From positions 81,288-145,287 of the forward strand of contig JABGXP010000014.1 of NCBI GenBank assembly GCA_018675685.1: a stretch of DNA of 64,000 nucleotides, in the 5' to 3' direction. The notes beneath the pieces are model-generated. The model searched no databases, had not been told where the DNA came from, and was given only the letters and a program-made list of their open reading frames with translations. The stretch is from a bacterium (GTDB taxonomy: Bacteria; Patescibacteriota; Minisyncoccia; Moranbacterales; DUUL01). Made by a program: the position numbers and the translations under genes. Below are positions 27,951-59,619 of the stretch, in pieces (position 1 is the first letter of the stretch; each line of letters begins with the position of its first letter).

Positions 27951-30650
27951 CTAAAGTGAGATCCTTAGAATATCACCATTTTTAGTGCTAATAAATGCTC
28001 GATCCTGTTTTTCATTGACCCAGAAGTGTTCAGCATCTATGAATTTTTCACTGAATTTTTTCACTGTCTCCGATTGATTGCTCTTTAAAATCTTCATAAG
28101 AACCCCGTTTTTTGAGTCCAAAGAATATATATTACTTGGTTGAGACCTAGTTTCGATATCGACAATTCTTGTCTCTTCATAATCATCATTTTTTGCAGAG
28201 AAAGAAGTTTTTAATTTTCCTTCAAAGTATTGTTGAATTTCTCCGTTTTCAGATGCCACCAAAAGTGAATCATCAACCGCTAAGTCAATTGCTGCTGAAA
28301 AGAATTGTTGGTTCGGTATCCTGATTTTATAATTATGAAAACCTCCTGGTTTGCGAGGAAATTGATAGATATTCTTTGAATTATTATCAAGAATATAAAG
28401 ATATTGGAGATAAACCCCAGCTCCTCCAATGGCAAGATTGTTAGGGAGTTTAATATCAACATCTGTAAAGCGATTTGTTACGGGGCTATAAGAAAAAACA
28501 CGCTTTTCTGAAATAAGGAAGACCAGTCTAAGGGTCGGCATAGATACAAGTGTTTTGGTTTCTTTCATATCATTCTTAAGAGGGACTTCTTTCAAATTAT
28601 TATTGGTGATGTCTAATCGGAAGAATTTTCCTGAAGCTGTGAGGATGAATAATTCGTCCTTATCTCCAGTTAAAGCTTTAATCTCCTCATTAACAGCTGC
28701 TATTGTTGTTGTTTCTGTCTCACTTTCGGAACCTCCTCTTTTTTGATCATTTATTATCTCGGTAGTTGAGGTTTCATTGAAAGCTTTATTTCCAATTAAT
28801 TTAGACAAAAATGAGAATAAGAAAATCAACGCCAAGAGAGAAATCGTGCCTATAAGAATTATTTTTTTGTATTTTCTTGTAAGCAAAACAAACTTTCTCT
28901 TGAGTCTCCCCAAATCTTTTTGTTTTGAGATTGCTATAACAGAGGTAATTGAACTCGTCATGGCATCTCGAAAAGAAGTTTTTATTTGTGTATCAGTTGG
29001 TTTTGTACTTTCGCTGGCAATGTTATTTCCCTTCCCGATTCTCTTCTCTCCAGAGACAAGAGAATTAATCTTAGCATGCATAGCTGTGTAGAGCTCCTTG
29101 ATTTTTTCTGTCAATTTAAGGAATATAGACTTTAGCTCATTCAGAATCCTTTGAAAATCAATTAAATCAAGTTTCTCTTTCACTTTTTTTAAATAGACGC
29201 CAATGGTTCTTCGAACACTCTTGGCTTGTTTTTCTTTAAATGTAGACTCTTCTTTTTTTCGTATCTCTCCATTTTTTACACGCATAAACTCTCTTTCTTT
29301 ACGAATCGTTTCTTTTTCTGCCTCCATTTTTTCTTGCTCCTCTAGTTCTTTCGATGGTTCAATGGGGTAGGATATGCTGTTATTGAAAGAGAGGTCTTTT
29401 ATGTTGTCATCTGATTTCCCAAGCTTAATTTTCGAAATTAAAGGGATTGAACTTGCTGAAATATTGTTATTTTTTTTCAAATCCTCAAGAGTTTTTTTGG
29501 CTTTATTTAAAATAGAATTAAAGCTCTTCTCATTGGTGTCGTCAATTTCCTTCATTTCAAGAACTTCTTTATTCCCATCAGCTTCTTTAATAAAAAGTTC
29601 CGGTTGCTCTTCAAACGGAGAAATAGGAGATGATCCCACAGTTTTGTTTTTTTGTTCCGTAGGCGCAGTTGGTTTGTTCGGAATATTCACTGCCCCTTTC
29701 TTTGCCTTTTTAGACAATTCTATTTCTCCGTCTCTTGTCTTTTTTGGTATTAATGAGGAGATTGGGGCCTCTGTCGTGATACTAACTTCTTTGTCTTTGG
29801 TATTTTTAGTCTCCTGTTCTATGTTTTTTAGTGAGCGGCATCTTTTGCCTAGAGAGGTCTTTGGAGTGAACGCTTCACTTTCTCCAAAAAAATTAAGCTT
29901 TGCGAGATCTTTTTCTTTTGGAGCCGAAGTCACGCTTTTCTCTTTGATGTTAGTGATAACAACCCCCACATCCTCTCCCTCTAAGTCCAAAGTTGATTTG
30001 AGAATATTATCAAATTCACTGGAAGTAAAGGTTTTTGTGTGGCGAGTGATTTCCTCCCAAGAAAGGGAGTCAAAAAGTTTCTTTGTTGAAAAAATAAGTT
30101 TATCTCCAATTGAGAGTTCACCATAAGAAATATCAGAAAATGTTTTCACAGGGTGCACGTTTTTTTCCTCATTTAACCCCTTTGATATTTCAGCAATTTT
30201 TTTATTCTTGGAGAGAAAAATTTGTCCATTCCCAAGCTTAGTAAAATGGAGTTCATTTCCGCTGATAACTCCAATAACAGCATCTAAATTATTGATCCAG
30301 TTTGTTATTTCATGTTGAGCAAGATCCTCTAATGCCAGGTTGATCTTATTAAGGGCACTTCCAAAACTTTCCTCTGTTCCCCTGTTTGGTTTTAAGAAGA
30401 ATTCTCGCTTAATCACCTGGGAAAGAAGATTCGGAAGATAGGCGGATCCTTCTGAGTTGTCATTACTTCTGATTATACCAAAAAGGTCTCCCAATTTACG
30501 TTGGGCTGGATTCTCTCCCTCAAAATGAAAAGTGTTTGAAAATGGTTGCAAAGCTTTATCTTTACAGACCGCCACCAAGAAGGAATCTAATTCAATTTCA
30601 ATTTTAGATTTTTTTTCTTTAATATTGTTGTGCATAGCAAAATATTTCAA
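27951..30650 (-). CDS. large membrane protein: N-terminal PP2C/SpoIIE-like domain, K/E-rich linker, one TM, C-terminal beta-propeller-like ectodomain
   Basis: The N-terminal roughly 240 aa follows a PP2C-like layout (GDLFGIIRS...; DAVIGVISGNELHFTKLGNGQIFL; LSIGDKLIFSTKKLFD; GEDVGVVITNI). The TM is IILIGTISLLALIFLFSFL. The C-terminal roughly 290 aa consists of repeated beta units. The start is either TTG 30650 or ATG 30635. Confidence 0.55.
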   Translation of the reverse strand: MKYFAMHNNIKEKKSKIEIELDSFLVAVCKDKALQPFSNTFHFEGENPAQRKLGDLFGIIRSNDNSEGSAYLPNLLSQVIKREFFLKPNRGTEESFGSALNKINLALEDLAQHEITNWINNLDAVIGVISGNELHFTKLGNGQIFLSKNKKIAEISKGLNEEKNVHPVKTFSDISYGELSIGDKLIFSTKKLFDSLSWEEITRHTKTFTSSEFDNILKSTLDLEGEDVGVVITNIKEKSVTSAPKEKDLAKLNFFGESEAFTPKTSLGKRCRSLKNIEQETKNTKDKEVSITTEAPISSLIPKKTRDGEIELSKKAKKGAVNIPNKPTAPTEQKNKTVGSSPISPFEEQPELFIKEADGNKEVLEMKEIDDTNEKSFNSILNKAKKTLEDLKKNNNISASSIPLISKIKLGKSDDNIKDLSFNNSISYPIEPSKELEEQEKMEAEKETIRKEREFMRVKNGEIRKKEESTFKEKQAKSVRRTIGVYLKKVKEKLDLIDFQRILNELKSIFLKLTEKIKELYTAMHAKINSLVSGEKRIGKGNNIASESTKPTDTQIKTSFRDAMTSSITSVIAISKQKDLGRLKRKFVLLTRKYKKIILIGTISLLALIFLFSFLSKLIGNKAFNETSTTEIINDQKRGGSESETETTTIAAVNEEIKALTGDKDELFILTASGKFFRLDITNNNLKEVPLKNDMKETKTLVSMPTLRLVFLISEKRVFSYSPVTNRFTDVDIKLPNNLAIGGAGVYLQYLYILDNNSKNIYQFPRKPGGFHNYKIRIPNQQFFSAAIDLAVDDSLLVASENGEIQQYFEGKLKTSFSAKNDDYEETRIVDIETRSQPSNIYSLDSKNGVLMKILKSNQSETVKKFSEKFIDAEHFWVNEKQDRAFISTKNGDILRISL

Positions 30651-38066: not shown

Positions 38067-39329
38067 ATGAATACAGAAGTAATACTAGGGGGATTGCGAA
38101 GCAAAAAGAAAGGACACTGGTTTTTGATCAGTGCTGCCCTGGTTTTAATAATTGTTTTGGTTTTCAATTTTGGATCCAATGCAAAAGGTGAGGACAAAGA
38201 AGGAGACACAATAGATATATCGCAGAAAGTTGTCGCATATGTTGAGACGGTGACACTAGGTGAAGGATCTTCAGATGCAGCCAAGCTTGAAAGAACGGCT
38301 ATTTTTCGTTCCGCACAAGCTGGAAATGTTGTCGCTGAAAACACAGGAAGGATTAAACAAGTCAATTTTGAAATTGGTGATTTTGTAAGGCAGGGCCAGG
38401 TCCTAGCCGTATTTGATCAATCTAGCTTGAAAACAACAGCTGTAACGGCTCTATCTTCAGCAAGCGCTGGATTGGAAATTGCCTTGGATACTCAAAAAAA
38501 GACAGAAAAAGTTGCAAAAGAGAGCTTGGAGCTAACTAAAAACGCAAGAAAAATTGCTAAAATGCAATATGAAAATGCAAAAAATGATCCCACGGAAGAT
38601 GAGGACATTGCAAAGAGAGCGTATGAAAACGCAAAAGATCTAGAGGATCAAGCTGAGCAAAATGTTAAGATCCAAAAGAATCAAGCACAGTTACAAGTTA
38701 ACGGTGCTAAGCAGACAATGGATGGTGCAAGAGTTGTTTTTGAAAAAACTATTCTTAGAGCTCCAATTTCTGGGACAGTTGTTTCTAAGAATGTTGCAAT
38801 TAGTGATTATATTACAAGTGGTTCTCGAATCGCTGGAGTTGTTGGAGAAGGAAAACTGCAAACAGTCGTTTCCTTGAATGCTGATCAAATCTCCAGAATA
38901 AAAATTGGCGACGAAGTTGCTATTGCGATTGGAAAAAGCCAGCACAAGGGGAAAATTGTCTCCCTTTCAACGATTGCAAAAACAACAAATCAAAGGTTTG
39001 ATGTTAAGATTGAAACTTTAAAGGAAGTTATGACAAACGCGAACAAGACAGGCAAAGTTCTTTTTTCGTTAGCGCTAGAAGAGGAAGTAGTAGAGCCCTC
39101 TGAGCAGAAGATTTTCTTCGCTCCGATAAGTTCTGTGAATTTAGGACAAAGGAGATCTGTCGTGTTTATCTTAGAAGAAGGGAAAGCCATTGCCAGAGAA
39201 ATTGAAGTTGGCGAAATTGTTGGTGATAAAATTGAAATAACAAAAGGAGTTTCTTTTGGAGAGAAGTTGATTATTGTTAATTCAAGAAATCTTACAGATG
39301 GTCAAGCAGTCACCACCAAAAAGGATTAG
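38067..39329 (+). CDS. efflux RND transporter periplasmic adaptor (HlyD/MFP family)
   Basis: N-terminal TM, a lipoyl-like hairpin (G.V..V.F.IGDFVRQGQVLAVFD), a coiled-coil hairpin, ILRAPISGTVV, and C-terminal beta domains. Adjacent to an RND pump gene. Confidence 0.8.
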   Translation: MNTEVILGGLRSKKKGHWFLISAALVLIIVLVFNFGSNAKGEDKEGDTIDISQKVVAYVETVTLGEGSSDAAKLERTAIFRSAQAGNVVAENTGRIKQVNFEIGDFVRQGQVLAVFDQSSLKTTAVTALSSASAGLEIALDTQKKTEKVAKESLELTKNARKIAKMQYENAKNDPTEDEDIAKRAYENAKDLEDQAEQNVKIQKNQAQLQVNGAKQTMDGARVVFEKTILRAPISGTVVSKNVAISDYITSGSRIAGVVGEGKLQTVVSLNADQISRIKIGDEVAIAIGKSQHKGKIVSLSTIAKTTNQRFDVKIETLKEVMTNANKTGKVLFSLALEEEVVEPSEQKIFFAPISSVNLGQRRSVVFILEEGKAIAREIEVGEIVGDKIEITKGVSFGEKLIIVNSRNLTDGQAVTTKKD

Positions 39330-39380
39330 AAGATAAGGCTTGCAAAGAGCACAAATAAGAAATCGAAAAGAACTATTACA

Positions 39381-42300
39381 ATGAATAGCACAGAAAATTC
39401 TAGTGAAAACAAAGATTCTCGGGTGAAAAAATTGAAACTCAGAGAAAAAATCGTTCGAGAGTTGGAAGAATTTGAAAATTCTCCCTGGGTTTTTTTGATT
39501 AGGAAAAGCAAGCTTACAATCTTGATTATTATTGCATTATTAATCTTTGGGATAGCAACAATTAAAAACATGCCACGGGAACTGAACCCTGAGATAGAAA
39601 TTCCTTTTGCTATTGTTGTGACAGTTTTTCCGGGAGCGTCACCCTTGGATATTGAACAGCAAGTTACAAAAAAGATTGAGAGCGAAATAAGCGATCTAAA
39701 CGGAATCAAAAGAATTGACTCCTCGAGTTCTCTTGGATTTTCTTCTATTTTTGTTGAATTTGAGGCCGGCGAGGATATTGATAAATCAATCAAAGAACTT
39801 AAAGATAAGGTTGACAATGCCAAAACTGAGCTGCCAGAAGATGCTAGTGAACCAAAAACAGTTGAGGCTAAAATCGATGATCGGCCCGTAATGGAAGTGA
39901 CTCTTGTCTCAGAGGAATATGACGTCGCTGAGCTAAAACAGTTTGCCGAAAACTTAAAAGATGAGATAAAAGGAGTCCCTTTTGTGTCAGAGGTTAATAT
40001 TTCAGGAGGAAGAGATCGAGTGATCAAAGTTGATTTTGATCAAGATATTCTTGCAAAAAAAGGATTAACGGTGCAAGGAGTGCTAGGTGTCTTGAGTGCT
40101 AATAATGTTAATTTTCCTGCAGGTTCTATTGTGATTGAAAAATCAAGATATAATGTAAGAATCCAAGGAGAATTCAAGGATTCTTCCGAAGTAGGAATAT
40201 TTCCAATTGGTGCGAATAATGATGGAAGTTTGATTTATCTTGAAGATGTTGCGAAAGTAAAAGACGATTTTTCAAAAGAATTTTCCCGATCGAGATTTTC
40301 AATTGCTGGTGATGAGCCACTTGATGCAGTGTCAATTCAAATTTACAAAAAAACTGGGGGTGACGTGACAGCGCTAGCTAGTGAAGTTAGAGATCGAATC
40401 GAAAATGAGAAAGGTTCTGCATATCCAGAAAATGTAACAGTTGAGGTGACAAATGATTTTTCAAAGTTTGTGACTGATAGTATCAATACCTTGGTTGGTA
40501 ATGGTTTGGCAACTGTATTTTTAATCCTCTTGCTCTTATTGATTTTTCTAGGTTGGCAAGAAGCTTTTTTGGCTGGACCTGCTGTACCTTTTTCATTTTT
40601 CATTGCTTTTATCGTGATGGCAAGTGTTGGAGAGAGTTTGAACACTATTTCACTTTTTGCGCTTGTCTTATCCCTCGGTCTCTTGGTTGATAGTGCTATT
40701 GTAATTGTTGAGGGGATGCATAATAAGGTTGAAAAGTACAAATTAACAGGTTATCAAGCGGCTATTTCAACAGTAAGAGAATATGCAGCACCATTACTTG
40801 CAGGAATGCTAACAACAGTAGCAGCCTTTTTCCCGCTATTGTTTGTGAAAGGAATCTTCGGGTCCTTCATTAGAACAATTCCAATTGTTGTGATTTCGAC
40901 ACTTATCGCTGGGTTGTTTGTTTCCGTATCAATTATTCCAGCACTCGGCACATATCTTATTAAACCCGTTAGAAAGAAGAAAGAAGAACCTTGTGGCAGA
41001 AATTTTTTCACAAAAGTTTGCTTGAAAATGAAACAAATTTTTAAGGGAAAGCCACGAAAAGAGCGATTTTCTTCAAAAATGTTTGACTGGATCGCTAAGG
41101 TATACAGAAGGAATATTCCAAAAATTTTAACCAGTCGTAAAAGACGCATTCAAGTAATCGCTGGGATTTGGATATTTTTCTTTATTTCGATGGCATTGCC
41201 GGTGTTTGGTTTGATTAAAATGCAAGCTTTTGGTCAGGATGATTCTGATTTTTTCTACATCAACCTCGAAATGCCAAACGGAACTGTTTTGGAAAGAACG
41301 GATGAAATAACCAAGAAAATTGAGAATGAACTTCGGAAAGAATCTGAAATTGAGAATTTCGTTACTAACATAGGGAGCGCTATAGGTGGAGATGGCGCAA
41401 CTTCAGCTTCTGAAGGGGATAGCAACAAGGCTTTTATTCAAATTAATCTTATAGATAAAAAAGAACGTGAGACTTATAGTTTTGAGTTTGTTTCGGAGCT
41501 AAGAAAGAAACTCGAACCAATTGTCACCCAAGGGGACATTCGCTTTGTAGAGCTTGATTCAGGCCCCCCAGCAGGTAAGCCAATCGAACTTAGAGTAAGC
41601 GGTCCAGACCTTTTGATATTGGAGGAATTTGCTGAAAAAATTGCCGATGAATTGAAAAGCATTCCAACAACAATTGATGTGGAAACCTCTGTTAAACTTG
41701 CTGCAGGAGAGTTGGTTTTTACCCCAAACAAAGAAATCTTAGCTAAAAATGGAATTTCAGTGATTCAAATTGCTGGTGAGTTGAGGAGCAAGGTTGCTAG
41801 GAACGACGACATTGAGATTACCAGGGATGGTGATGAAGTGAAGATTGACACAGGAATTAATGACAAACAGTTATCAAGCACAGAAGACATCAAAGGGCTT
41901 TCTGTTTTAAATTCTAAGGGAGAGAAATTCTCAATCACTGAATTGGGCATGCTGACCTTTGAGCCTTCCCTTGCTACAATCAATAGGAGGGACAATGAAA
42001 GAATTGTCTTGATAACAGGGGATTCTGATGGAGGAAACACAACTGAAATCACTCAACAGCTTTTGGGTGAGATTGAAAAAATGTCATTGCCAAGTGGATA
42101 TACTGTTTCTTCTGGAGGTGAAGCGCAGGAGATGATGGAAGTTTATATCGATATGTTCTTGAAGATGATTTTGGGAATTGTGCTTATTCTGTTTATTCTT
42201 GTTTTGCAGTTCAATTCATATCGACAAACCATGATTATCATATTCACTATTCCGCTCGCAATGATCGGTGTGCTTTGGGGGATGACGATCTTTAGAATGA

Positions 42301-42638
42301 CATTGGATATCCCAGCTTTTATTGGAATTATTTCCTTGGCCGGGATTGTTGTTAATAACGCAATTATTCTTATTGATCAAATCAACCGTGAATTGAAGGA
42401 GGGAAGTGGATTGATTGATGCAGCTAAAAATGCAGGTTACATTCGTTTAAGGCCAATCTTCCTTACAACAATCACTACAATCATTGGTTTGTTACCACTT
42501 TCAATCACACAGCCAATTTGGAGAAATCTCGGTTTTGCGATTATTTTCGGACTGGCATTTTCAACGCTATTAACATTGATCATTGTACCAACAATGTTCG
42601 TGAGTCTTTATCGAAAAGAATATCCTCTTGAGAAGTAA
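39381..42638 (+). CDS. RND-family efflux permease (AcrB/HAE-like, 12 TM)
   Basis: 1085 aa with the duplicated architecture of 1 TM, large loop and 5 TM. Conserved segments include SLFALVLSLGLLVDSAIVIVE and ISLAGIVVNNAIILID. Confidence 0.9.
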   Translation: MNSTENSSENKDSRVKKLKLREKIVRELEEFENSPWVFLIRKSKLTILIIIALLIFGIATIKNMPRELNPEIEIPFAIVVTVFPGASPLDIEQQVTKKIESEISDLNGIKRIDSSSSLGFSSIFVEFEAGEDIDKSIKELKDKVDNAKTELPEDASEPKTVEAKIDDRPVMEVTLVSEEYDVAELKQFAENLKDEIKGVPFVSEVNISGGRDRVIKVDFDQDILAKKGLTVQGVLGVLSANNVNFPAGSIVIEKSRYNVRIQGEFKDSSEVGIFPIGANNDGSLIYLEDVAKVKDDFSKEFSRSRFSIAGDEPLDAVSIQIYKKTGGDVTALASEVRDRIENEKGSAYPENVTVEVTNDFSKFVTDSINTLVGNGLATVFLILLLLLIFLGWQEAFLAGPAVPFSFFIAFIVMASVGESLNTISLFALVLSLGLLVDSAIVIVEGMHNKVEKYKLTGYQAAISTVREYAAPLLAGMLTTVAAFFPLLFVKGIFGSFIRTIPIVVISTLIAGLFVSVSIIPALGTYLIKPVRKKKEEPCGRNFFTKVCLKMKQIFKGKPRKERFSSKMFDWIAKVYRRNIPKILTSRKRRIQVIAGIWIFFFISMALPVFGLIKMQAFGQDDSDFFYINLEMPNGTVLERTDEITKKIENELRKESEIENFVTNIGSAIGGDGATSASEGDSNKAFIQINLIDKKERETYSFEFVSELRKKLEPIVTQGDIRFVELDSGPPAGKPIELRVSGPDLLILEEFAEKIADELKSIPTTIDVETSVKLAAGELVFTPNKEILAKNGISVIQIAGELRSKVARNDDIEITRDGDEVKIDTGINDKQLSSTEDIKGLSVLNSKGEKFSITELGMLTFEPSLATINRRDNERIVLITGDSDGGNTTEITQQLLGEIEKMSLPSGYTVSSGGEAQEMMEVYIDMFLKMILGIVLILFILVLQFNSYRQTMIIIFTIPLAMIGVLWGMTIFRMTLDIPAFIGIISLAGIVVNNAIILIDQINRELKEGSGLIDAAKNAGYIRLRPIFLTTITTIIGLLPLSITQPIWRNLGFAIIFGLAFSTLLTLIIVPTMFVSLYRKEYPLEK

Positions 42639-51302: not shown

Positions 51303-51341
51303 AAAGAGGGTAACCAGGAACTTTGGTCACCCTCTTTTTTG
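51303..51341 (+). terminator. rho-independent terminator of the atp operon
   Basis: aaagagggtaacc (51303-51315) / ggtcaccctcttt (51325-51337) with one mismatch, followed by tttttt. Confidence 0.75.
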
Positions 51342-51407: not shown

Positions 51408-51566
51408 GTATGTAATTGAAAATAAATACATACAAAAAAAGAGACGTGTTTGACTCCCGATTTAACGGAGGAAAACACAGAACCATAGATCCCGTTCATT
51501 GGAAGCGGGTTTTATGGTATATGGATATTAAATAGCAAAGAGAGTGTACAGTGCATTCTCTTTTTG
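51408..51566 (+). ncRNA. candidate structured small RNA (about 160 nt), family unknown
   Basis: Three hairpins lie between the orphan promoter and a terminator: gtatgta/tacatac (about 51407-51434), gtgttt-ctcc/ggag-aaacac (about 51446-51478), and accata-cccg/cggg-tatggt (about 51482-51519). The terminator is agagagtgta-cag-tgcattctct plus ttttt (51539-51565). Confidence 0.3.
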
Positions 51567-51646: not shown

Positions 51647-52606
51647 TCAAGTTGTGCTTTTTCTTCCTAGCATTTCAAGGAGAGAGGGGAGTGCAAAGTG
51701 AACGACAATTCCAATTCCAATAGCTGAAAGTGGCACCCAGTAGAGCGCGTGACAATTTTCAAGGAGATACCAAGTTGCAACGAGAGCCGTTACTCCTGCA
51801 GTATCAAACTTCCAACCATAATCGCTGAGTTCTACATGTTTCCAGGTATTAGCAATAAGAGCTATTGCCAAAACGATAAGCGCTAGTACCCACGGCAACT
51901 TTTTTGTATTTTCGCAAGTAGTTGATGTCCCCTTAACATCTCCAGCATTTTCTGATCCTGCTCCTTCCTCGGAAATTATTGGTGTGTTTTCGCCGAGAAC
52001 TTCAGCCTCTTCTTCTGGTAAGTTCTCTGTTAGACCAAGCACGCGTCCTTGGTCAGTAAGAATATCTTCCTCGGTTTCATCTTCTGTTGCTACGCGTGAT
52101 TCTATTTCAAATTCAATATCAAATTTTGCTTCTAAGTTTTGATATTCATTACCAGCATCTTCATCGAATTTTATTTTAATGCGATATTCTTTGCCTTTTG
52201 TAGCGCTCAGACGGTCCATGTATAACTCTTCTTCATCTGCCTTTTTCAAGTCATAGCGGTCCCCTGGTCCGCCAATCCGATAACTCCCATTCTCAACCCT
52301 GATAACATATAGTTTCAATTCTTCTGCTAATTTCTTGTCACCCTTAAGGTCAATAGTAAAAAATAAATTAATATCATCTGTTTCGCTGTCATTTTCCACT
52401 CTAATAGTTTTCTTTTCTTGCCAACCAGGCAGGATGTTAGTGAAATCGAAAATAGCACTTTCATTTAAATTTGTTCCCACTGGATATTCAACATCGATTT
52501 TGTCATCTGCCCAAGCAATGTTTGTGAAAAAAACTCCACTAAAAAGCAAGCTTATTGTAAGTAAGAAGAATTTTTTCAGTCCAAATTTTATACCATCTTT
52601 TTTCAT
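51647..52606 (-). CDS. TasA/camelysin-like secreted domain with C-terminal multi-TM membrane anchor
   Basis: Conventional signal peptide ending AWA/DD. The core has FDFTNILPGWQEKKTIRVEN and GNEYQNLEAKFDIEFEIE, paralleling GNEYQGDQMTFNIELYAEQ in the 350-aa protein. An acidic linker follows, then hydrophobic helices (LPWVLALIVLAIALIANTW; VTALVATWYLL; YWVPLSAIGIGIVVHFALPSLL). The start overlaps the upstream stop (ATGA). Confidence 0.55.
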   Translation of the reverse strand: MKKDGIKFGLKKFFLLTISLLFSGVFFTNIAWADDKIDVEYPVGTNLNESAIFDFTNILPGWQEKKTIRVENDSETDDINLFFTIDLKGDKKLAEELKLYVIRVENGSYRIGGPGDRYDLKKADEEELYMDRLSATKGKEYRIKIKFDEDAGNEYQNLEAKFDIEFEIESRVATEDETEEDILTDQGRVLGLTENLPEEEAEVLGENTPIISEEGAGSENAGDVKGTSTTCENTKKLPWVLALIVLAIALIANTWKHVELSDYGWKFDTAGVTALVATWYLLENCHALYWVPLSAIGIGIVVHFALPSLLEMLGRKSTT

Positions 52607-54948
52607 GCCAATATGTTATTGATAATTAACATTACTATTTCTCCCAGATCATTCTCTTCCTCTTTTTTTTCTTCTTCCTTTAACTCTTCTTTTTCTTCTG
52701 ACTCTTCTTCTTTAATCGCTTCTAGTTCTACTTGTTCCTCTTTGGGTTCCTCAGATGTTTCGTTTTCTGCTTCCTCTGCTTTCTCGTCTTTTAATTCAGG
52801 GGTTTCATTGTTAGCTGATTCTTCTTCTACACTTTCCAATTTCTCTTCTTCTGGGGCTACCTCCTCTGCAATTTCTGGTATCGAGTCTTCTTCTTTGGAG
52901 TTTTCATTATTTAAATCAGAATCCTTGTCGTCAGTTTGGTTTTCTTCACTCTCAATAGAAGACTCTTCGCCCGAATCTTCTTCAGGTAGTTCAACTTGCT
53001 CAGTATCGGTTTGCTTTATGTTTTCTTCTTGGGCCTGATCAGTTTCTCCTTTAGAAGTATCCTCCCCTTTAATGGCATCGAGGAAAACTTCATCGCCATC
53101 TTCCTTTTTTTCATCTTCGTCTTCTTCTTGCGATTCCAAAGCAATTTCTGCTAGGATTTCGCGATAAACATCTTTGGGCATTTCATCATCATTTTCATCA
53201 TCTAAAAGACCCAAGTATTCCAAGAAAACTCCCTTGCAAAATGGATGTTCTTCCTCTCTGTCGAAATCTCTTTTGTCGAAACATTCTTCCAGAACTATTG
53301 CTTGATAATAATCTTTTTCATCGCTAGAGAGTTTGTTTTCTTTGCCTAAGCGAGGATTTGGGTCAACAAAAGGACCAACACCATCTGGGATTCGTTGAAA
53401 CGCTTTATTTTCAAAGAAATCGCTTGGCTTTTGATAATCATAGTGATCATTTTCAATTTCAACACTGCCATAACGAGCAATCAGATATAATTCACCGTTG
53501 TTGTTATTATCAAAGAATTCAGCTGGATTAAATTGTCCGTCTGCATACACAACTAGATCATCGCCAGCTGGAACAATGGTCTCACCACTATCTGAAGGGT
53601 TGTCATCATTGTCGCCGTTGGAAGTCGAAATAATAATTTCATCTCCGTCTTTATTGGCAATGATCCAACCAGCCACATCCCAGTCCTTGTCATCATTATT
53701 CCAAAGTTCAATCACTTCACCATTTGGCATTGGCGCTACGTCACTTCCAGATGGATTTGCCACAAACTCATTTAAAACTATTGGCAAGAGGTTTTGTCCA
53801 CCAGGCGTGCCATAGTTATTGATTTCATCTTCCCAAAAGTCAGTATCATTAGCAGCTGGGTGATTTGTCGTGAACCAATTTTTAGCATCCGTGCCATCTC
53901 CTGGGAGAGGCATTCTTTGCATTGAACGATAATCCGAACCATTTTCTCCTGCTGGCCAAGCTGAATCTTTCCAGGCGACGTCAACTGTTGTACCAGCTTT
54001 GTTTGCAAGTAAAAGTCCCTCGCCGTCATTGTGGAGACTCACATTTGATTTATGGGTGATTCCTTTATCAGAGTCTAGATTGCTGGAGAGGCCAATAGCT
54101 GTTTCATTCCATTTTTTTCTCAAGATCAAGAAATATCCATTAGCTTTGATGCTATATCCATGTGGAATTTCTAGGTGTGCCATTGCCCCTGCGCCATGGC
54201 CAAGACCATGAACATTCCAATTTGAAAGGTCAATCTCTTTGTCTGTCATGTTGCGAAGTTCAATCCATTCGTCAGAACTTCCTTCTTCTGATCCCATCCA
54301 CATAATCTCGTTGATAACAACAGCTTGGCTAGCTGACCACTGGTCGGAAGTAACACGGTTACTCGTAGTTTCAATATCAGAAAAGCCATCAGCTCCATGG
54401 GTCGAACCTGTTTGCCAAGCTTCAAATTTAAAATCAAAATCACAAACTTTATCAGCCAGGGAAGGATTGCCATCAGTTAATTTAACGGTAAAGTTCCAAG
54501 TTTCTTTTGAAATATTTTGTGTACTCGAAAAAAGATAGTCAGCTAATTTTTGATAGGTATTTGTTTGATCGTCTTTGATTTCCAATTTTTCACAAAGATC
54601 TAAGTCGCCAGAAAGATTTGTAGTTGAAACTTTGTAATTAAAATCCAGTATCCCGAGTTTTGAAAGCGAAACAGATTTAGAAGTTTCTGTGGAGGGTGAA
54701 ACTTTGGGAGAGAAACTGTCGTCGGAAGGAATGGAAAAGTCTAGAGTGGAAGCGCCCAGAGTGTTATTTGCGCCCTCTTCTTTGTCTGAAAAACTAGCAT
54801 TAGTGCCCCCAGGAAAATTCAGTGAAAAAGAAAAAACTGATATCAAAAGACAAATTCCCACTTTTTTGAGCGAGCTTAGGATTCTTCTTGTGATAACTGA
54901 TTTATATCTCCTTTTCTTCTTTGACATCGTCTTTTTTAGTATTATCAT
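52603..54948 (-). CDS. SipW-type-signal TasA-like domain fused to two lamin-tail domains and a roughly 230-aa acidic tail
   Basis: N-terminus ...LLISVFSFSLNFPGGTNASFSDKEEGANNTLGASTLDFS, a SipW-cognate-type signal. The TasA-like core ends CDFDFKFEAWQ. Two LTD-like units are present (VVINEIMWMGSEEGSSDEWIELRNMTDKEIDLSNW...; IVLNEFVANPSG...GEVIELWNNDDKDWDVAGW...). The C-terminus is extremely D/E-rich. The start is 54948 or 54927. Confidence 0.65.
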   Translation of the reverse strand: MIILKKTMSKKKRRYKSVITRRILSSLKKVGICLLISVFSFSLNFPGGTNASFSDKEEGANNTLGASTLDFSIPSDDSFSPKVSPSTETSKSVSLSKLGILDFNYKVSTTNLSGDLDLCEKLEIKDDQTNTYQKLADYLFSSTQNISKETWNFTVKLTDGNPSLADKVCDFDFKFEAWQTGSTHGADGFSDIETTSNRVTSDQWSASQAVVINEIMWMGSEEGSSDEWIELRNMTDKEIDLSNWNVHGLGHGAGAMAHLEIPHGYSIKANGYFLILRKKWNETAIGLSSNLDSDKGITHKSNVSLHNDGEGLLLANKAGTTVDVAWKDSAWPAGENGSDYRSMQRMPLPGDGTDAKNWFTTNHPAANDTDFWEDEINNYGTPGGQNLLPIVLNEFVANPSGSDVAPMPNGEVIELWNNDDKDWDVAGWIIANKDGDEIIISTSNGDNDDNPSDSGETIVPAGDDLVVYADGQFNPAEFFDNNNNGELYLIARYGSVEIENDHYDYQKPSDFFENKAFQRIPDGVGPFVDPNPRLGKENKLSSDEKDYYQAIVLEECFDKRDFDREEEHPFCKGVFLEYLGLLDDENDDEMPKDVYREILAEIALESQEEDEDEKKEDGDEVFLDAIKGEDTSKGETDQAQEENIKQTDTEQVELPEEDSGEESSIESEENQTDDKDSDLNNENSKEEDSIPEIAEEVAPEEEKLESVEEESANNETPELKDEKAEEAENETSEEPKEEQVELEAIKEEESEEKEELKEEEKKEEENDLGEIVMLIINNILA

Positions 54949-55495
54949 TCTCTAATTCATCTGCTTTGCGTTTTTTTGTTCTTCTTCGATAATCAAGTTT
55001 TTTCAATATTTCTTTCTTGATGGTCAAAATTTCATCATAGATAATAATAACTGCGGGAACAATGATGATTAGAACAAAACCAATCGGTTTTTGCGCAGCA
55101 TTCACGGCATATCCTAAAAATGGAACAGAGAAGAGCACTTTTCCAATAACTTCATTTTTTGAGACTTGTTTGTGGTCTTTCGCATTATTAGCATCTCCTT
55201 TAGTGATGTATTTTTCGATATCGTCATTTTTTTCTATGGCTGTGATTCTATGTGTGGTCGGTGTTTTCATTTTGGAGGACTCTCCAAAAGTGATCACATC
55301 ACCAACTTGATAATTTTCAGCTGGTTTTGTGGCTACTATGCTTCCTGTGCGAATTTTTGGTTCCATTGAGCCAGAAAGCACGATAAATGATTTATAACCA
55401 CCTTTTATGGGAATAGCAGACAGAACTAAAAAAACGGCAATAATTGCAATTGCAAGGATAAATAGGTAATAGAAAGTTTTGAAGATTTTTTTCAT
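54902..55495 (-). CDS. sipW: signal peptidase I, SipW (archaeal/ER) type
   Basis: N-terminal TM, VLSGSMEPKIRTGSIV (Ser box), VGDVITF, PTTHRITAI (His box), ITKGDANNAKD, a second TM, and a basic/acidic C-terminal tail. Confidence 0.85.
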   Translation of the reverse strand: MKKIFKTFYYLFILAIAIIAVFLVLSAIPIKGGYKSFIVLSGSMEPKIRTGSIVATKPAENYQVGDVITFGESSKMKTPTTHRITAIEKNDDIEKYITKGDANNAKDHKQVSKNEVIGKVLFSVPFLGYAVNAAQKPIGFVLIIIVPAVIIIYDEILTIKKEILKKLDYRRRTKKRKADELENDNTKKDDVKEEKEI

Positions 55496-55590
55496 TAGAG
55501 GTGTGTTTCTTGGTAGTTGCTTGTTTAAAAACAGGAATAGTTAACTTATTGACTGCCCGAGAGTTCAGGCAGTCTAAAGTCAACTAACTA

Positions 55591-56643
55591 TTAGTAAGAA
55601 CTAACTATTAGTAAGTCAGTATCTTCATACCAAATCAAACCAGTCTCCCAGAGCCATTTGTCCATTTGAGTCCATTGAATAGCTCCATCATTCCATGCAG
55701 TCTTTGGGAGCAACCAAACCTTAACATCTTTCATGTCTTTTCCAAGCTCCATATCTCCGGTGAAATTGATATCACCACTTCCGTTTGATATGCTTTCTCC
55801 TAGGTATGTATCAACATTAGTACCACCATCATATCCAGCAGCTAATACATACGTTGTGTTAGGCAAAGCAACTTTTCCGTCAAATTCAAAATCAAAAGTT
55901 GGATTTTTAACTTCATAGGTTAGTGTGCCTTTGAAATCATCATCTTGAAGCACGTTCCAAGGTCCAGAAGTGTCTTTATTTTCTAGCCAAGCCTCCCCAT
56001 GAAGTTGTTCAGCATAGAGCTCAATGTTGAAAGTCATTTGATCACCTTGATATTCGTTGCCAGCGTTTTCATTCATGTGATAGCTTTGTCTAACTTGCAT
56101 GTAGCCATTAGCAGGAATCATTCCTAAGAACACTTTTTTAGCACCAGCATAGACATCATCAAGAGTTTTACCTTCTGAATCAAGGTAGAGGGTTTGTTCC
56201 CAGATAGGAGTATTACTTGAATCGTATACTTCAACGTATAGATCATAAATAATAACACTAGAGAGATCATTATTGTCAGTTGCACCACCCCAAGAACAAG
56301 CATCATTACTCCAATTACCACCTTGGCCATCACATTCAGGCTCTGATACTACACCTGTTATTTCTACAATTTCGGTGATATCCTTCCAAACATTAACAGG
56401 GTTTGCACTCTCTCCCTCATTTTCAATTTCAAAGTTGATATAATCGATATAATCTGGTTTCATGTCATCCATGGCGAAGCTTTCACTCCAAGGATTCATG
56501 TTATTTACTGAAATATCAATTGTTCCAGCAGTGAAAGTGTTGCCGACTGATTTTTCTTCATCTGAAAAATAGGCTACCGTACCACCGATTGCTACTGCTG
56601 CAACGGCTGTGATAACCATTAAACTTTTTAAAATCTTTTTCAT
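55591..56643 (-). CDS. TasA/camelysin-family (peptidase M73-like) secreted protein, candidate major fibre subunit, with extra C-terminal domain
   Basis: N-terminus MKKILKSLMVITAVAAVAIGGTVAYFSDEEKSVGNTFTAGTIDISV is the hallmark SipW-cognate signal plus the mature N-terminus of the TasA/CalY family. The core ends NEYQGDQMTFNIELYAEQ, and about 130 further residues follow. Confidence 0.75.
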   Translation of the reverse strand: MKKILKSLMVITAVAAVAIGGTVAYFSDEEKSVGNTFTAGTIDISVNNMNPWSESFAMDDMKPDYIDYINFEIENEGESANPVNVWKDITEIVEITGVVSEPECDGQGGNWSNDACSWGGATDNNDLSSVIIYDLYVEVYDSSNTPIWEQTLYLDSEGKTLDDVYAGAKKVFLGMIPANGYMQVRQSYHMNENAGNEYQGDQMTFNIELYAEQLHGEAWLENKDTSGPWNVLQDDDFKGTLTYEVKNPTFDFEFDGKVALPNTTYVLAAGYDGGTNVDTYLGESISNGSGDINFTGDMELGKDMKDVKVWLLPKTAWNDGAIQWTQMDKWLWETGLIWYEDTDLLIVSSY

Positions 56644-57225
56644 TTTTTCTTGTTAAATTTTTATACTAAATTTCTCCCTCTAGCAATTTAGTTAGTTTGG
56701 TTTAAGCTCTAATAGTTTAAACCAGAGAACCGTGCACAAATGTTTTTGGGTAGCTTATTCCTTCCTAGTGTTAATATTTAGTGTTTTATCTTAAACTTTG
56801 TTCATTTAACTAGATTTAAGGTAACAAAAAAATCAGAAACTTTTTGCTCCGTTGTTTTTTAGGGTTTTTTGATTTTGTTTTTCTTTCTTTTCAGGAATGC
56901 TCTTTCCATATCTGTTATTTAATCATTTAACAAAAATAATAAACAGACTCTTTCACAAACTAGCAACCAGGACCCCTCTTTTAATAACGAGTATAGCAAG
57001 TCATTTTCAAACGTCAAATGGGATTAAACTTATAACCCTGTTTTTAGGGCAAAAAACAGGGGGATTCCTTTTTCCGAAAAAATGTTAAATCTAATTGACA
57101 TTTCCTGGTATTTATGTTCAAATTAATGAGCAGAAAATTATCTGGTAACAGTTTTTTTACAAAAAGCACGAAAAAGCAGTTAAACAAAAAACCTAGACTA
57201 GGCTATTTCCAAAGGAGAAAGGTTC

Positions 57226-57741
57226 ATGAAAAATAGAAGAGAAGAAAGAAGATTGTTGAGAGAAGAAGGTCTCCCAATTGAAAGAATGAGAATCATCGAC
57301 ACAGCAGAGACGTTGGATTTGCAAATCAAAGAATTTCTGGGTTGTCATGTATCCGTGAGTGGTTGTGGTTCTTCGAAAGAGCAGACACTGGATCTCTCAT
57401 TGGTGAGAGAGTTTGTCGGAGCAATTCCGGTTGCCAACGTTTTGTTCGAAGCACCTCGCTTTGCATGGACCAATGAGGAAGATGATATTCCTGTCAGGGC
57501 GATTGTTCTGGAAGTTTTGGCTGGTAGCAAAGGAGATGACCTTCTGAATGGCATTTTCGATGATGTTGGCATGATCTTTGAGGATATTCGTTTTTTGAAC
57601 TTTCTCTCAGTTATCCAAGCGACGTTGTCGCCAGTGTTTCCAGTTTGTGAGCTGGAGGTTTTGCTGAAAATGATTAATGATTTCAAAAAAAGTCCGGTGA
57701 TCCAAAAATCAGACATGGGGGATGAAAATATCAATGAATAG
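57226..57741 (+). CDS. hypothetical protein (171 aa), orphan locus gene 1
   Basis: AAGGAGA lies 7 nt upstream of the ATG and the gene has its own terminator. No recognisable motif. Confidence 0.5.
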   Translation: MKNRREERRLLREEGLPIERMRIIDTAETLDLQIKEFLGCHVSVSGCGSSKEQTLDLSLVREFVGAIPVANVLFEAPRFAWTNEEDDIPVRAIVLEVLAGSKGDDLLNGIFDDVGMIFEDIRFLNFLSVIQATLSPVFPVCELEVLLKMINDFKKSPVIQKSDMGDENINE

Positions 57742-57781
57742 CTCCTTTTGTCGAATAGTTCGTTCTATTGAATGTTTGCGA

Positions 57782-57818
57782 GGTGTCTAGTGGAAAATTC
57801 CGCTGGACACCTTTTTTT
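57782..57818 (+). terminator. rho-independent terminator after orphan gene 1
   Basis: ggtgtctag (57782-57790) / ctggacacc (57803-57811) with one mismatch, followed by ttttttt (57812-57818). Confidence 0.65.
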
Positions 57819-57840
57819 GAATAATTTTTGTCGATTTTCA

Positions 57841-57869
57841 TTGACAAAAGTAACAAAATCATGTATGGT
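57841..57869 (+). promoter_or_regulatory. putative promoter of orphan genes 2-4
   Basis: TTGACA (57841-57846), 17-nt spacer, TATGGT (57864-57869). Confidence 0.45.
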
Positions 57870-57971
57870 TATTGGAATGATCCAAATCTCTTTTGAGTCA
57901 AGGTCATTTGCTAGTTCTTCGTCAATTTGGAATTTTAGAAAAAAACTTTTTAATTTTTTTGGAGGTAAGTC

Positions 57972-58367
57972 TTGAAAGAAGAGCATGGAAGGATAAATGT
58001 TTTAATCGTGGATAGCGAGGAAGATGATGCTATAATTCTCGATATCAGAAAGTTGATCATCAATTTACATCAAAAACAAGGGAGCAAAAAAGAGCTAGCT
58101 ATTAGCTTAATTGATAGCCAAGTGAATCTTTTTGCACATCATTTAGAGTTTGATTTTCAAATTGTTATTCTGTTAAACAACAATGAAAAAAGCGATTTGA
58201 TTTTTCAATATCTAAATGGGTTTTTTTCTGGCAAGGCAAAGTTTATTGTCATTGGCCCTGAAATTGAAACTGCGGCTAAGCACGCGAAGTTTGAAGGTGC
58301 TTGGGTTGTTTCAAACACCTTTAATGAAGTGATCCCACAGTTCGAAACATTGATGGGAGAGAAGTAG
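57972..58367 (+). CDS. degenerate response-regulator-receiver-like protein (131 aa), orphan locus gene 2
   Basis: TTG start with GGAGG 6 nt upstream. The layout INVLIVDSEEDD ... FQIVILLNNNE ... KFIVIGPE ... GAWVVSNTF parallels the REC strands b1, b3, b4 and b5. The acidic pair is altered and the phospho-acceptor Asp position reads N. Confidence 0.45.
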   Translation: MKEEHGRINVLIVDSEEDDAIILDIRKLIINLHQKQGSKKELAISLIDSQVNLFAHHLEFDFQIVILLNNNEKSDLIFQYLNGFFSGKAKFIVIGPEIETAAKHAKFEGAWVVSNTFNEVIPQFETLMGEK

Positions 58368-58376
58368 TTTAAACGG

Positions 58377-58389
58377 TCAATCAGCAAAG
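58377..58389 (+). repeat. leader motif copy 1: TCAATCAGCAAAG (preceded by TTTAAAC)
   Basis: Identical 13-mer to 58630-58642. It lies 37 nt upstream of the ATG at 58427 and is followed by the hairpin agtaaac-tgcaaag-gtttact. Confidence 0.6.
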
Positions 58390-58426
58390 TAAACTGCAAA
58401 GGTTTACTGAAGATGGGGAGGATGCT

Positions 58427-58603
58427 ATGGACAGATATCTTGACCCAGAAATACGACAAAGGCGCAGAAACAAACTAGTAAGTGGCAAGTGCACTGTTTG
58501 TTCAAATGACGCTGCAATTCCTTGGAAGCAACATCAATATTGTTACGACTGCTGGGTAATTGCAGAGGTTTATTTCATGAAAGAACTGCGGAATGAAAAA
58601 TAA
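58427..58603 (+). CDS. small zinc-ribbon protein (58 aa, below the ORF-track cutoff), orphan locus gene 3
   Basis: My own translation: MDRYLDPEIRQRRRNKLVSGKCTVCSNDAAIPWKQHQYCYDCWVIAEVYFMKELRNEK. GGAGG lies 6 nt upstream of the ATG. It has two CxxC pairs and a TAA stop at 58601-58603. Confidence 0.45.
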   Translation: MDRYLDPEIRQRRRNKLVSGKCTVCSNDAAIPWKQHQYCYDCWVIAEVYFMKELRNEK

Positions 58604-58629
58604 GGAGAGCGAAAGATTAATTTAACCTA

Positions 58630-58642
58630 TCAATCAGCAAAG
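58630..58642 (+). repeat. leader motif copy 2: TCAATCAGCAAAG (preceded by TTTAAC)
   Basis: Identical 13-mer, 11 nt upstream of the ATG at 58654. It runs into the GGTGG Shine-Dalgarno-like sequence. Confidence 0.6.
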
Positions 58643-58653
58643 GTGGTAAGAAG

Positions 58654-59619
58654 ATGGAGAAAAGAAAAAAAGGAGATAAAAAACCAGAGAATGTAAGAAT
58701 CATTTTTGTTTCTGCTGTCTGCGGAAAAGAACCAGAGCTCATGACCAGTTTTCTTGAAGAGTTTGATTCTTTCGCGAAGAAGCAGGACAAAAAAACTTTT
58801 GTCTTGATTTTCTGCGGAAAAGCAAGCGACCCAAGCAAGCTTTTGCGAAAGGCTGACATTCTGGTAACTGATCCCGTGATCACTTGGGGTGGAAGAAAGA
58901 CATTCCTTCCTCAGCTAGGTTCTGCCAACGATGAGCGCGAGAATGGAAAACGCAGAATCATTATCGTTCTTCCAAGAAAGAAGGATGAAAGAAATAAATT
59001 CTTTGCTGACCCCCGGTGTTTTGCAAAGACATTGATGCCAAATGTGGAGCATCCTCGGAAAGTTGAAAAAATCTCGCATATTCCTTTGAATGGCAAGACT
59101 CTGGAAAAAATCGAAGATGAAGTCATTTTCGAACTACCAGAACATTGTTCAGCCCCGAGAGTGATGATCGCACTTTCTAATTCTTTTGAAATGATTGAAG
59201 CGAAAAAACTGAAGGAGACAATTGAGGCACAATTTGCCCTTGAGGTGATGGTGGTTCCTTGGAAAAGCTTCCGAGCTTCAATGGCCGCCGAAGCGGATGT
59301 TTTGATTACTAGCACTGTTCAACAGCTCGATAGACTCCCAACACCTGCAAGAGTTCCCACTAATAGGCACAATGGTAGAAACAACAAGTTTGTCGAATCA
59401 AAAGTTCACACCTATCAAAACTTGGCGCATGTTGACATGTCCAAGAAGGCTAATCCAGCCCTGCAGGTTGTTCTTTTGGGAAGGGAAGTGACAGCGTTCA
59501 TTGTTCGTTATGCGGACATCCTATCCGGCTTCTTAGAGTTTCCGCCAACAAAGGCTTCTTTGTCAGCAGCTTTACAAAGAGCAGCTTTGAAAAGCGAAAA
59601 ATCAGTTCTTATCAATTAG
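58654..59619 (+). CDS. hypothetical protein (321 aa), two alpha/beta-looking halves, orphan locus gene 4
   Basis: Intact ORF. It has repeated hydrophobic-strand patterns (RIIFVSA, FVLIFCG, ADILVTD; then RVMIALS, EVMVVPW, ADVLITS). No family recognised. Confidence 0.5.
   Translation: MEKRKKGDKKPENVRIIFVSAVCGKEPELMTSFLEEFDSFAKKQDKKTFVLIFCGKASDPSKLLRKADILVTDPVITWGGRKTFLPQLGSANDERENGKRRIIIVLPRKKDERNKFFADPRCFAKTLMPNVEHPRKVEKISHIPLNGKTLEKIEDEVIFELPEHCSAPRVMIALSNSFEMIEAKKLKETIEAQFALEVMVVPWKSFRASMAAEADVLITSTVQQLDRLPTPARVPTNRHNGRNNKFVESKVHTYQNLAHVDMSKKANPALQVVLLGREVTAFIVRYADILSGFLEFPPTKASLSAALQRAALKSEKSVLIN

Follow-up and report, generated by a model that had tools for sequence, protein, structure and literature searches.

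We analysed a 64,000-nucleotide (nt) stretch of contig JABGXP010000014.1 (hereafter the window) from a Moranbacterales bacterium of the Candidate Phyla Radiation (CPR, or Patescibacteria), and found that it carries a four-gene operon which, on balance, appears to build a cell-anchored TasA-type fibre. In this fibre, a protein with lamin-tail domains (LTDs) would occupy the distal end, a TasA-family protein would form the shaft, and a membrane protein would serve as anchor and terminator. The four open reading frames (ORFs) lie in the same direction on the minus strand and encode a shaft subunit of 350 amino acids (aa) (55591-56643), a SipW-like signal peptidase of 197 aa (54902-55495), an LTD protein of 781 aa (52603-54948), and a membrane protein of 319 aa (51647-52606). 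The 781-aa ORF overlaps sipW by 47 nt in its longest form and by 26 nt from Met8 (window 54927), the start that yields 774 aa and is used by the homologues and the NCBI annotation, while its stop codon overlaps the start of the 319-aa gene as ATGA (ttggcATGAaaaa). A scan of the whole window with hidden Markov models (HMMs) of our own found no TasA-like, SipW or anchor gene besides these four, so the operon is self-contained. Up to 34 public contigs carry identical or near-identical copies of its proteins, and each of the four has homologues, which argues that the ORFs are real genes and not chance ones; the nearest relatives belong to Candidatus Moranbacteria/Moraniibacteriota and other Patescibacteria. 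A preliminary description of this DNA had reported a self-contained set of four co-directional genes with both overlaps, and its coordinates, quoted N-termini and GNEYQ... motifs were all recovered.

The 350-aa protein is the TasA-family major (shaft) subunit, as first proposed. It passes PF12389 (Peptidase_M73/TasA) with 9.1e-15 and 55.4 bits against a gathering cutoff of 22.5, and TIGR04088 (SipW-dependent signal) with 34.3 bits against a cutoff of 19; a search for relatives gave 479 homologues, several of which are named 'TasA family protein' in Patescibacteria. Mature Bacillus subtilis TasA begins with its eleven-residue donor strand (28-38); a linker to the core follows at residues 39-47, and in the monomer the groove is self-complemented by residues 48-61 (PMC9674648, PMC10151520). 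Mapping of TasA residues 28-38 (PMC9674648) onto the 350-aa protein places a SipW-type signal peptide at residues 1-24 and the donor-strand motif YFSDEEKSVGN at residues 25-35 (window 56539-56571), followed by a TasA-like jelly-roll (about residues 36-215) and an extra C-terminal beta-sandwich domain (about residues 216-345). The invariant residues of the shaft family cluster in the segment GGT.AYFSDTETS.GNTFTAGTIDI, which contains the cleavage site and the donor strand. The AlphaFold2 (AF2) model (mean predicted local distance difference test score, pLDDT, of 78.8) leaves residues 1-41 disordered and forms two beta domains, 43-213 and 217-341. Foldseek returned TasA (5OF1) as the sole high-probability match of this model in the PDB (probability 0.99, E 4.4e-3), in line with the expected jelly-roll fold. 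Additionally, we observed a 17-bp tandem duplication (two copies of CTTACTAATAGTTAGTT) across the 3' end of the gene (window about 55581-55614, minus strand), which appears to explain the extra C-terminal LIVSSY of this protein, not present in homologues that end in ...EDTDL.

The 197-aa protein belongs to the archaeal/ER-type signal peptidases I. It scores 124.8 bits with TIGR02228, against a cutoff of 51.85, and contains the expected boxes SGSMEP (residues 41-46, with Ser43), THRI (81-84, with His82), and KGDANN (99-104, with Asp101), in agreement with its earlier assignment as a SipW-type enzyme from the same motifs. Hydropathy indicates two transmembrane (TM) helices, one spanning about residues 3-34 and the other about 131-161. 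Its score with NF046067, the equivalog model of Bacillus SipW, is 126.7 bits and thus below the cutoff of 190; we therefore call it SipW-like and not an equivalog.

The 781-aa protein, the putative tip or initiator, combines a SipW-type N-terminus with LTDs. The NCBI version of 774 aa is named 'lamin tail domain-containing protein', and PF00932 matches two stretches (2e-23; 83.3 bits against a gathering score of 34.3), so that the LTDs noticed at the outset are present as two copies, LTD1 at residues 205-324 (window 53977-54336) and LTD2 at about residues 388-507 (window 53428-53787). Ahead of them lie a long SipW-type signal reaching to Ala51, the donor-strand motif SFSDKEEGANN (residues 52-62; window 54763-54795), and, at about residues 63-200, a TasA-like N-domain in which two Cys are conserved; behind them, an acidic tail of 183 aa contains 34% Glu (residues 586-768; window 52645-53193). 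Hydropathy revealed no TM segment past the signal. The resemblance to the shaft protein is concentrated at the N-terminus: BLASTP against the 350-aa protein found similarity only in the signal/donor-strand region (33% over 64 aa), where SFSDKEEGANNTLGASTLDFS, following the signal of about 44-51 aa, is identical to the shaft segment YFSDEEKSVGNTFTAGTIDIS at 10 of 21 positions. The protein reaches 14.3 bits with TIGR04088, under the cutoff of 19. An alignment (A3) of this protein with its counterparts at two related loci, L007 and L006, gave 95.9% probability by hhalign against the shaft family (alignment A2) over residues 21-100, and the L007 counterpart (34% identical) itself passes the PF12389 gathering score with 27.9 bits. 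The remaining part of the N-domain (residues 100-200) aligns weakly with the anchor family (hhalign 40%). Thus, of the earlier proposal that this is a TasA-family, adhesin- or tip-like protein, the SipW signal, the donor motif and the profile-profile match stand, while the protein has no PF12389 match of its own. A word-indexed search with its first 205 residues (window 54334-54948) found no match, not even the protein itself, although the collection contains it at full length, an apparent limit of the tool, and homologues were taken from syntenic loci. With B. subtilis TapA it shares the long SipW-type signal and the TasA-like donor strand (PMC9674648), and we regard it as TapA-like in the putative working of its N-terminus, without claiming membership; Pfam and NCBIfam scans of the operon proteins detected no TapA-type family.

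The 319-aa protein, annotated publicly as 'hypothetical', has no Pfam or NCBIfam match, and its assignment as the putative anchor or terminator draws on a family alignment (A1), hhalign, AF2, and Foldseek. It consists of an ordinary signal peptide (AWA|DD; residues 1-33), a TasA-like ectodomain without donor strand (residues 34-172; window 52091-52507), an acidic linker (residues 173-230), and a three-helix membrane module with invariant C231 and C285 (residues 231-315; window 51662-51916). Across the family, A1 shows the same order of A-x-A signal, conserved ectodomain (about 135 aa; motifs NIxPGW, RIGGxGD, and AGNEYQ..FDI.F), acidic linker, and three hydrophobic helices, and places the two invariant Cys on the outer side of the membrane. 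The relation to TasA was detected by pairwise BLASTP (E 7e-5) and by hhalign, which aligned the anchor and shaft families collinearly over the core (residues 50-169 against 53-212, 120 columns, E 9e-5); the HMM of the anchor ectodomain also cross-matches shaft proteins (4e-6 in locus L012). In the AF2 model, the ectodomain has a pLDDT of about 87 and the helices 236-260, 265-282, and 290-315 of about 90. The best match of its beta domain in the PDB by Foldseek is the TasA fibre 8AUR (E 1.4e-5), and further matches are the donor-strand pilins CfaB, CS17, CanA, and AbpA. Alignment, profile comparison and model thus agree with the first description of a core shared with the 350-aa protein, an ordinary AWA/DD signal and hydrophobic C-terminal helices; its idea of a membrane-embedded TasA-like base keeps the fold, the hhalign match and the three TM helices in its favour, but no curated TasA profile is passed. 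By profile-profile comparison and predicted structure, the ectodomain looks like a divergent TasA-like core.

What separates this protein from the shaft is the lack of the donor strand. The mature N-terminus, DDKIDVEY, aligns with TasA residues 42-47, and the F-x-D strand is absent throughout the family. The donor/SipW motif is present in 115 of 120 shaft homologues, as against 2 of 99 anchors that carry both ectodomain and TM module and none of 39 ectodomain-only relatives, and both positive anchors are false positives in the NIxPGW region. Because donor strand and SipW signal are missing, we describe the 319-aa protein as having a TasA-like fold and not as a standard TasA subunit. The tip proteins show the opposite pattern: in those of L001, L003, L005, L010, L012, and L013, the SipW signal and donor motif are followed directly by non-TasA domains, so that these proteins, which have no TasA core, can only donate a strand.

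The three-helix module extends beyond this family. The A1 profile, searched against 1.84 billion representatives, retrieved 1106 proteins, 224 of them at E<=1e-10. Besides full-length relatives, the matches include TasA-like ectodomains joined to an Fn3-like domain and a related helical module, as well as unrelated proteins of about 500 to >1900 aa that have only the helical module, at their C-terminus. In six such large proteins, Pfam detected SdrD_B, SpaA-type, HYR, Big, beta-helix, and LTD domains, and the adhesin-like proteins ending in the module range from 550 to 1900 aa (submitted were P0219, P0223, P0228, P0229, P0230, P0234, and P0278; P0258 was read by sequence only). The signature of the module, C-x-W-P ... 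FDKC..WF with its two invariant Cys, is absent from Pfam and NCBIfam. Firmicutes adhesins of such architecture end in LPXTG, and the module looks like a generic membrane anchor for surface proteins of CPR bacteria. It also occurs in many copies as a small stand-alone protein of 116-203 aa. One of these, a 163-aa protein without TasA-like ectodomain, is encoded directly 3' of the anchor gene in L005 (7899-8390; TM-module HMM 1e-17). Separately, a 442-aa protein with a DsbA/thioredoxin_4 domain is encoded elsewhere in the window (20902-22230, plus strand) and fits the extracytoplasmic Cys pairs of the operon, C231/C285 in the anchor and C119/C169 in the tip protein.

The gene set is conserved among relatives. 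HMMs built from our own alignments were run on all fetched loci, and the order shaft gene(s), sipW, tip gene with SipW signal, and anchor gene was found in 14 of 16 distinct complete CPR cassettes (the window, L001, L003, L005, L007, L008, L010, L012, L013, L014, L017, L019, L021, and L022), with flanking genes that are unrelated between loci; the four-gene synteny on which the preliminary description had staked its reading is thus present. Conservation extends to the ATGA overlap and to that between sipW and the tip gene. The shaft protein is either a single-domain form of about 190-250 aa or the two-domain 350-aa type, and the tip protein often, though not always, has LTDs, which are absent in L019 and L021. 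One of the two exceptions, L020, is a cassette without anchor that ends in a subtilisin-like protease. The other, L006 (candidate division WWE3, GCA_014729135.1; 11559-14475), is a sortase variant, in which the TasA-like protein encoded last has an ordinary signal and an LPATG and its gene is followed by that of a sortase. This protein (763 aa) contains a DUF11 domain and an internal LPATG and TM segment, followed by more domains and a second TM segment; this sortase-anchored variant of the base subunit may also represent two fused or mis-called genes. Sortase anchoring in L006 is a different solution to the task that the putative three-helix anchor would perform elsewhere.

Several further features of these loci were noted. 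In two of them, genes that look foreign are inserted without breaking the order: in L005 (3517-4728), an AAA_14/DUF4143 ATPase gene separates the shaft gene from sipW, and in L020 (12285-12677), a gene of the 23S rRNA IVP family separates sipW from the tip gene. A gene for a secreted protein of the CAP superfamily (PF00188) recurs close to the cassette, a few kb away at most, in four otherwise differing neighbourhoods (L001, 3394-4194; L005, 1401-2345; L007, 4185-5102; L019, 9413-10354), and the window ORFs scanned include no such gene. Metagenome-assembled genomes labelled 'uncultured Bdellovibrionales bacterium' (L011, L013, L014, and L015) also carry cassettes, with 36-55% identity to the Moranbacteria anchor family, and are probably mislabelled bins of Patescibacteria.

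The spacer between the 350-aa gene and sipW contains a long RNA stem-loop followed by a run of five U (55530-55592, minus strand). RNA folding gave a dG of -30.7 kcal/mol and a z of -5.6, and none of 200 shuffles folded as well. Strong hairpins occur in the same spacer of L001, L010, L012, L013, L006, and L017 (z -3.6 to -4.7) and a weaker one in L003; their position is conserved, while their sequences are unrelated. Placing a hairpin behind the shaft gene is the classical way to over-produce a major pilin, and the element is probably an attenuator or a 3'-end/mRNA stabiliser that raises the ratio of shaft to minor components. A consensus scan identified a candidate sigma-70-like promoter (TTGACG-16-TATACT with extended TG; 56990-57017, minus strand) about 350 nt upstream of the first gene, the sole 10/12 minus-strand match in the 580 nt of spacer preceding it. 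Beyond the last gene, a pattern scan detected a candidate intrinsic terminator with a 14-bp stem and a T-rich tail (51303-51337, minus strand), common to the convergent atpC, and a second, weaker hairpin lies downstream of the 319-aa gene at 51477-51495.

Putting these features together, we propose that the fibre most likely polymerises by donor-strand exchange without chaperone, usher or sortase. SipW would cut the shaft and LTD proteins just ahead of the F-S-D motif, exposing an N-terminal strand that corresponds to TasA residues 28-38, and each exposed strand would enter the groove of the following subunit. For TapA, which starts with a comparable strand, the role of first donor has been proposed (PMC9674648, PMC10151520). 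Like TapA or TafC, the LTD protein would give the first strand to the first shaft subunit and thereby end up at the distal tip, where it would display its LTDs and acidic tail as an adhesive end; it can act as first donor because it has the strand, and because several of its relatives lack the TasA core. The 319-aa protein would take the last strand, stop growth, and tie the fibre to the cytoplasmic membrane via its three helices. Since it can accept but not donate a strand, it can only occupy the end opposite the tip. The polarity from tip through shaft to anchor is thus deduced from which proteins carry the donor strand, and the conserved hairpin 3' of the shaft gene would probably keep shaft mRNA in excess. 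The analysis shows the protein families, which of them carry the strand, the fold, the helices and the gene order; the tip and base roles of the 781-aa and 319-aa proteins, strand insertion, and an adhesive role of the LTD/acidic tip are inferred. The fibre may serve in attachment to host cells or surfaces, or in aggregation, as CPR bacteria live as episymbionts; the conservation of the same kit in many relatives likewise makes the cassette a candidate attachment structure.

Several points weigh against the anchored-fibre reading. The AF2 models are monomers of the 350-aa and 319-aa proteins, and the signal-peptide cleavage sites were read by eye. Neither the 781-aa nor the 319-aa protein has a PF12389 match at E<=1, the hhalign probability of the anchor against the TasA family is only 59%, and the E-value of the match between the 350-aa model and 5OF1 is modest (4e-3), though with the probability given above. 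PDB sequence searches with both CPR family profiles retrieved no TasA entry, returning only chance matches to enolase and protein G; Pfam, hhalign and fold supply the link to TasA. In the 781-aa protein, the N-domain likewise resembles the groove-bearing TasA core, so this protein could sit inside the shaft and not only at its tip. Finally, L020 lacks the anchor, and anchoring is thus not obligatory.

The same evidence allows other assignments for the strand-less protein. Instead of a fibre end, it might be a membrane-tethered assembly platform or chaperone that captures donor strands near SipW and the Sec translocon, preventing or priming polymerisation, with finished fibres released or held otherwise. 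A groove-type TasA-like fold without donor strand also suits a chaperone acting by donor-strand complementation, the 319-aa gene is translationally coupled to the tip gene, L020 has no gene of the 319-aa type, and Bacillus TapA and CapP are chaperone-like nucleators (PMC10151520, PMC13082335). However, the known TasA-type nucleators give a strand and do not accept one, the TM module serves many unrelated adhesin-like proteins simply as their C-terminal anchor, and the WWE3 counterpart is a sortase substrate, which fits a permanent anchor over a recycling chaperone; we consider this assignment unlikely. It is more doubtful still that the 350-aa protein forms free matrix fibres as in Bacillus, nucleated by the LTD protein, with the 319-aa protein as a surface protein in its own right that happens to share the operon. 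A TasA-family shaft and SipW are indeed present, and the LTD protein is TapA-like in its long signal peptide, donor motif and overlap with sipW, but the 319-aa family accompanies the cassette wherever context suffices, across neighbourhoods and lineages, so that random co-location is no explanation, and its own ectodomain is TasA-like. A camelysin-type (Peptidase_M73) metalloprotease operon, with the TasA-like proteins as enzymes and the membrane-bound paralogue as a surface protease, would be suggested by the Pfam family name and by the historical account of camelysin as a surface-bound protease. We rejected this highly improbable candidate, since no HExxH or similar zinc motif was seen by eye in the 350-, 781-, or 319-aa sequences; moreover, the TasA structure is that of a fibre subunit without protease fold (PMC9674648), and conservation is highest in the donor-strand segment. 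A sortase or chaperone-usher pilus was likewise excluded as no such genes are present; no LPXTG sorting signal or sortase gene occurs among the window ORFs scanned.

The operon resides in a chromosomal context. Its flanks contain the convergent atp operon, dnaK/grpE/hrcA, nrdD, PFOR, and mraZ/mraW/PBP/Mur genes, and the GC content of the window is about 36% and uniform. The housekeeping flanks (atp operon, dnaK, mur/PBP) and the uniform GC led us to reject cargo of a mobile element or phage, and no tRNA or Rfam element was found in the window. Sizeable ORFs without Pfam match lie at 57226-59619 (plus strand), 27951-30650 (minus), 18496-20169 (minus), and 17301-18368 (plus); they include three of 171, 131, and 321 aa in a row, divergent from the operon, and another of 899 aa. 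At 38067-42638 (plus strand), an HlyD-type membrane-fusion protein adjoins an AcrB-family RND transporter of 1085 aa, in a lineage that is generally regarded as lacking an outer membrane.

How TasA-type fibres are started, stopped, and held by the cell is, to our knowledge, unsettled even in Bacillus, and the present gene set offers a testable answer, with one protein that only gives a strand and one membrane protein that only receives it. Host attachment is central to the biology of CPR bacteria, and only type IV pili are known to be implicated in it so far; the cassette is a second, widespread candidate appendage. We tentatively suggest, as a possibility beyond this operon, that CPR bacteria possess an unrecognised class of membrane-anchored TasA-type pili, composed of an LTD tip initiator, a SipW-processed shaft, and a strand-less TasA paralogue acting as terminator and anchor, by which wall-poor episymbionts might attach to hosts or surfaces without sortase, usher or ATP, and in which the three-helix, two-Cys module would be a CPR-wide generic anchor that replaces LPXTG. 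This module may provide a general rule for recognising CPR surface proteins now annotated as 'hypothetical'. In the literature, we found no description of this operon, the anchor family or the helical module in CPR bacteria; searches on SipW or TasA in CPR/Patescibacteria, lamin tail or donor strand returned only the remark, drawn from AnnoTree, that PF12389 occurs in Patescibacteria (PMC9245690). The logic of an anchored fibre has an archaeal precedent in TafF, and no bacterial description of it was found.

Compared with Bacillus tapA-sipW-tasA, the operon has in common a TasA-family subunit with SipW-type signal and N-terminal donor strand, a dedicated ER/archaeal-type signal peptidase, and a minor protein with long signal and donor strand whose gene overlaps sipW (TapA there, the LTD protein here). 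It differs in gene order, which here is shaft, sipW, minor protein, anchor, and in its SipW, which scores below the NF046067 cutoff. The shaft has an extra C-terminal beta-domain, and the minor protein carries LTDs and an acidic tail, whereas TapA has an Ig-like domain. The fourth gene encodes a membrane-anchored, strand-less TasA-like protein that Bacillus lacks, and the divergence is so large that the CPR profiles miss TasA in the PDB by sequence.

Terminator or anchor pilins are found elsewhere in PapH/FimI of chaperone-usher pili, Mfa2/FimB of type V pili, and the basal pilins of sortase pili. As proposed here, a minor subunit at one end stops elongation and fixes the fibre, and the tip adhesin is separate. 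The proteins are unrelated, however; the window has no usher, chaperone, lipoprotein processing or sortase, and anchoring here would be achieved by three integral membrane helices.

The archaeal bundling pili (AbpA/AbpB, Pyrobaculum) share a TasA-like jelly-roll assembled via donor-strand insertion, a TapA-like second protein, and operon partners of unknown role with a signal peptide and several TM helices (PMC9245690). Unlike the present operon, they have no dedicated signal peptidase in the operon and no LTD protein, and their TM proteins are not reported with a TasA-like ectodomain (PMC9245690).

By analogy, the closest known design is that of the haloarchaeal tat-fimbriae (tafi; TafA/C/D/E/F, described in 2025), which combine a dedicated S26-type peptidase (TafD), a two-domain tip/initiator that gives the first strand (TafC), and a shaft (TafA) (PMC11821415). 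The architecture of the 319-aa protein matches the description of TafF, which has an ordinary Sec signal, a subunit-like N-domain of about 140 aa, and three TM helices, and whose role as anchor or terminator rests on AlphaFold models only (PMC11821415). The preliminary description had held that this composition is unlike the Bacillus paradigm; it does differ from Bacillus, but a TM-anchored terminator is not without precedent, given TafF (PMC11821415). The Taf subunits carry Tat signals, whereas the signals here are of SipW-type Sec, and the 350-aa signal MKKILKSLMV... lacks a twin-arginine RR motif. Tafi-like clusters include a DUF5305 partner (TafG), and those of non-halophilic archaea have DUF1102-type subunits; here, the shaft belongs to PF12389, and no DUF5305 match was found among the four proteins or the flanking ORFs. 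The window also contains no gene for an adapter (TafE), and the organisms are archaea there and CPR bacteria here, the likeness to Taf being judged from the published description. Since Tat signal and DUF5305 are both absent, we regard the operon as analogous to tafi and not as a member of them.

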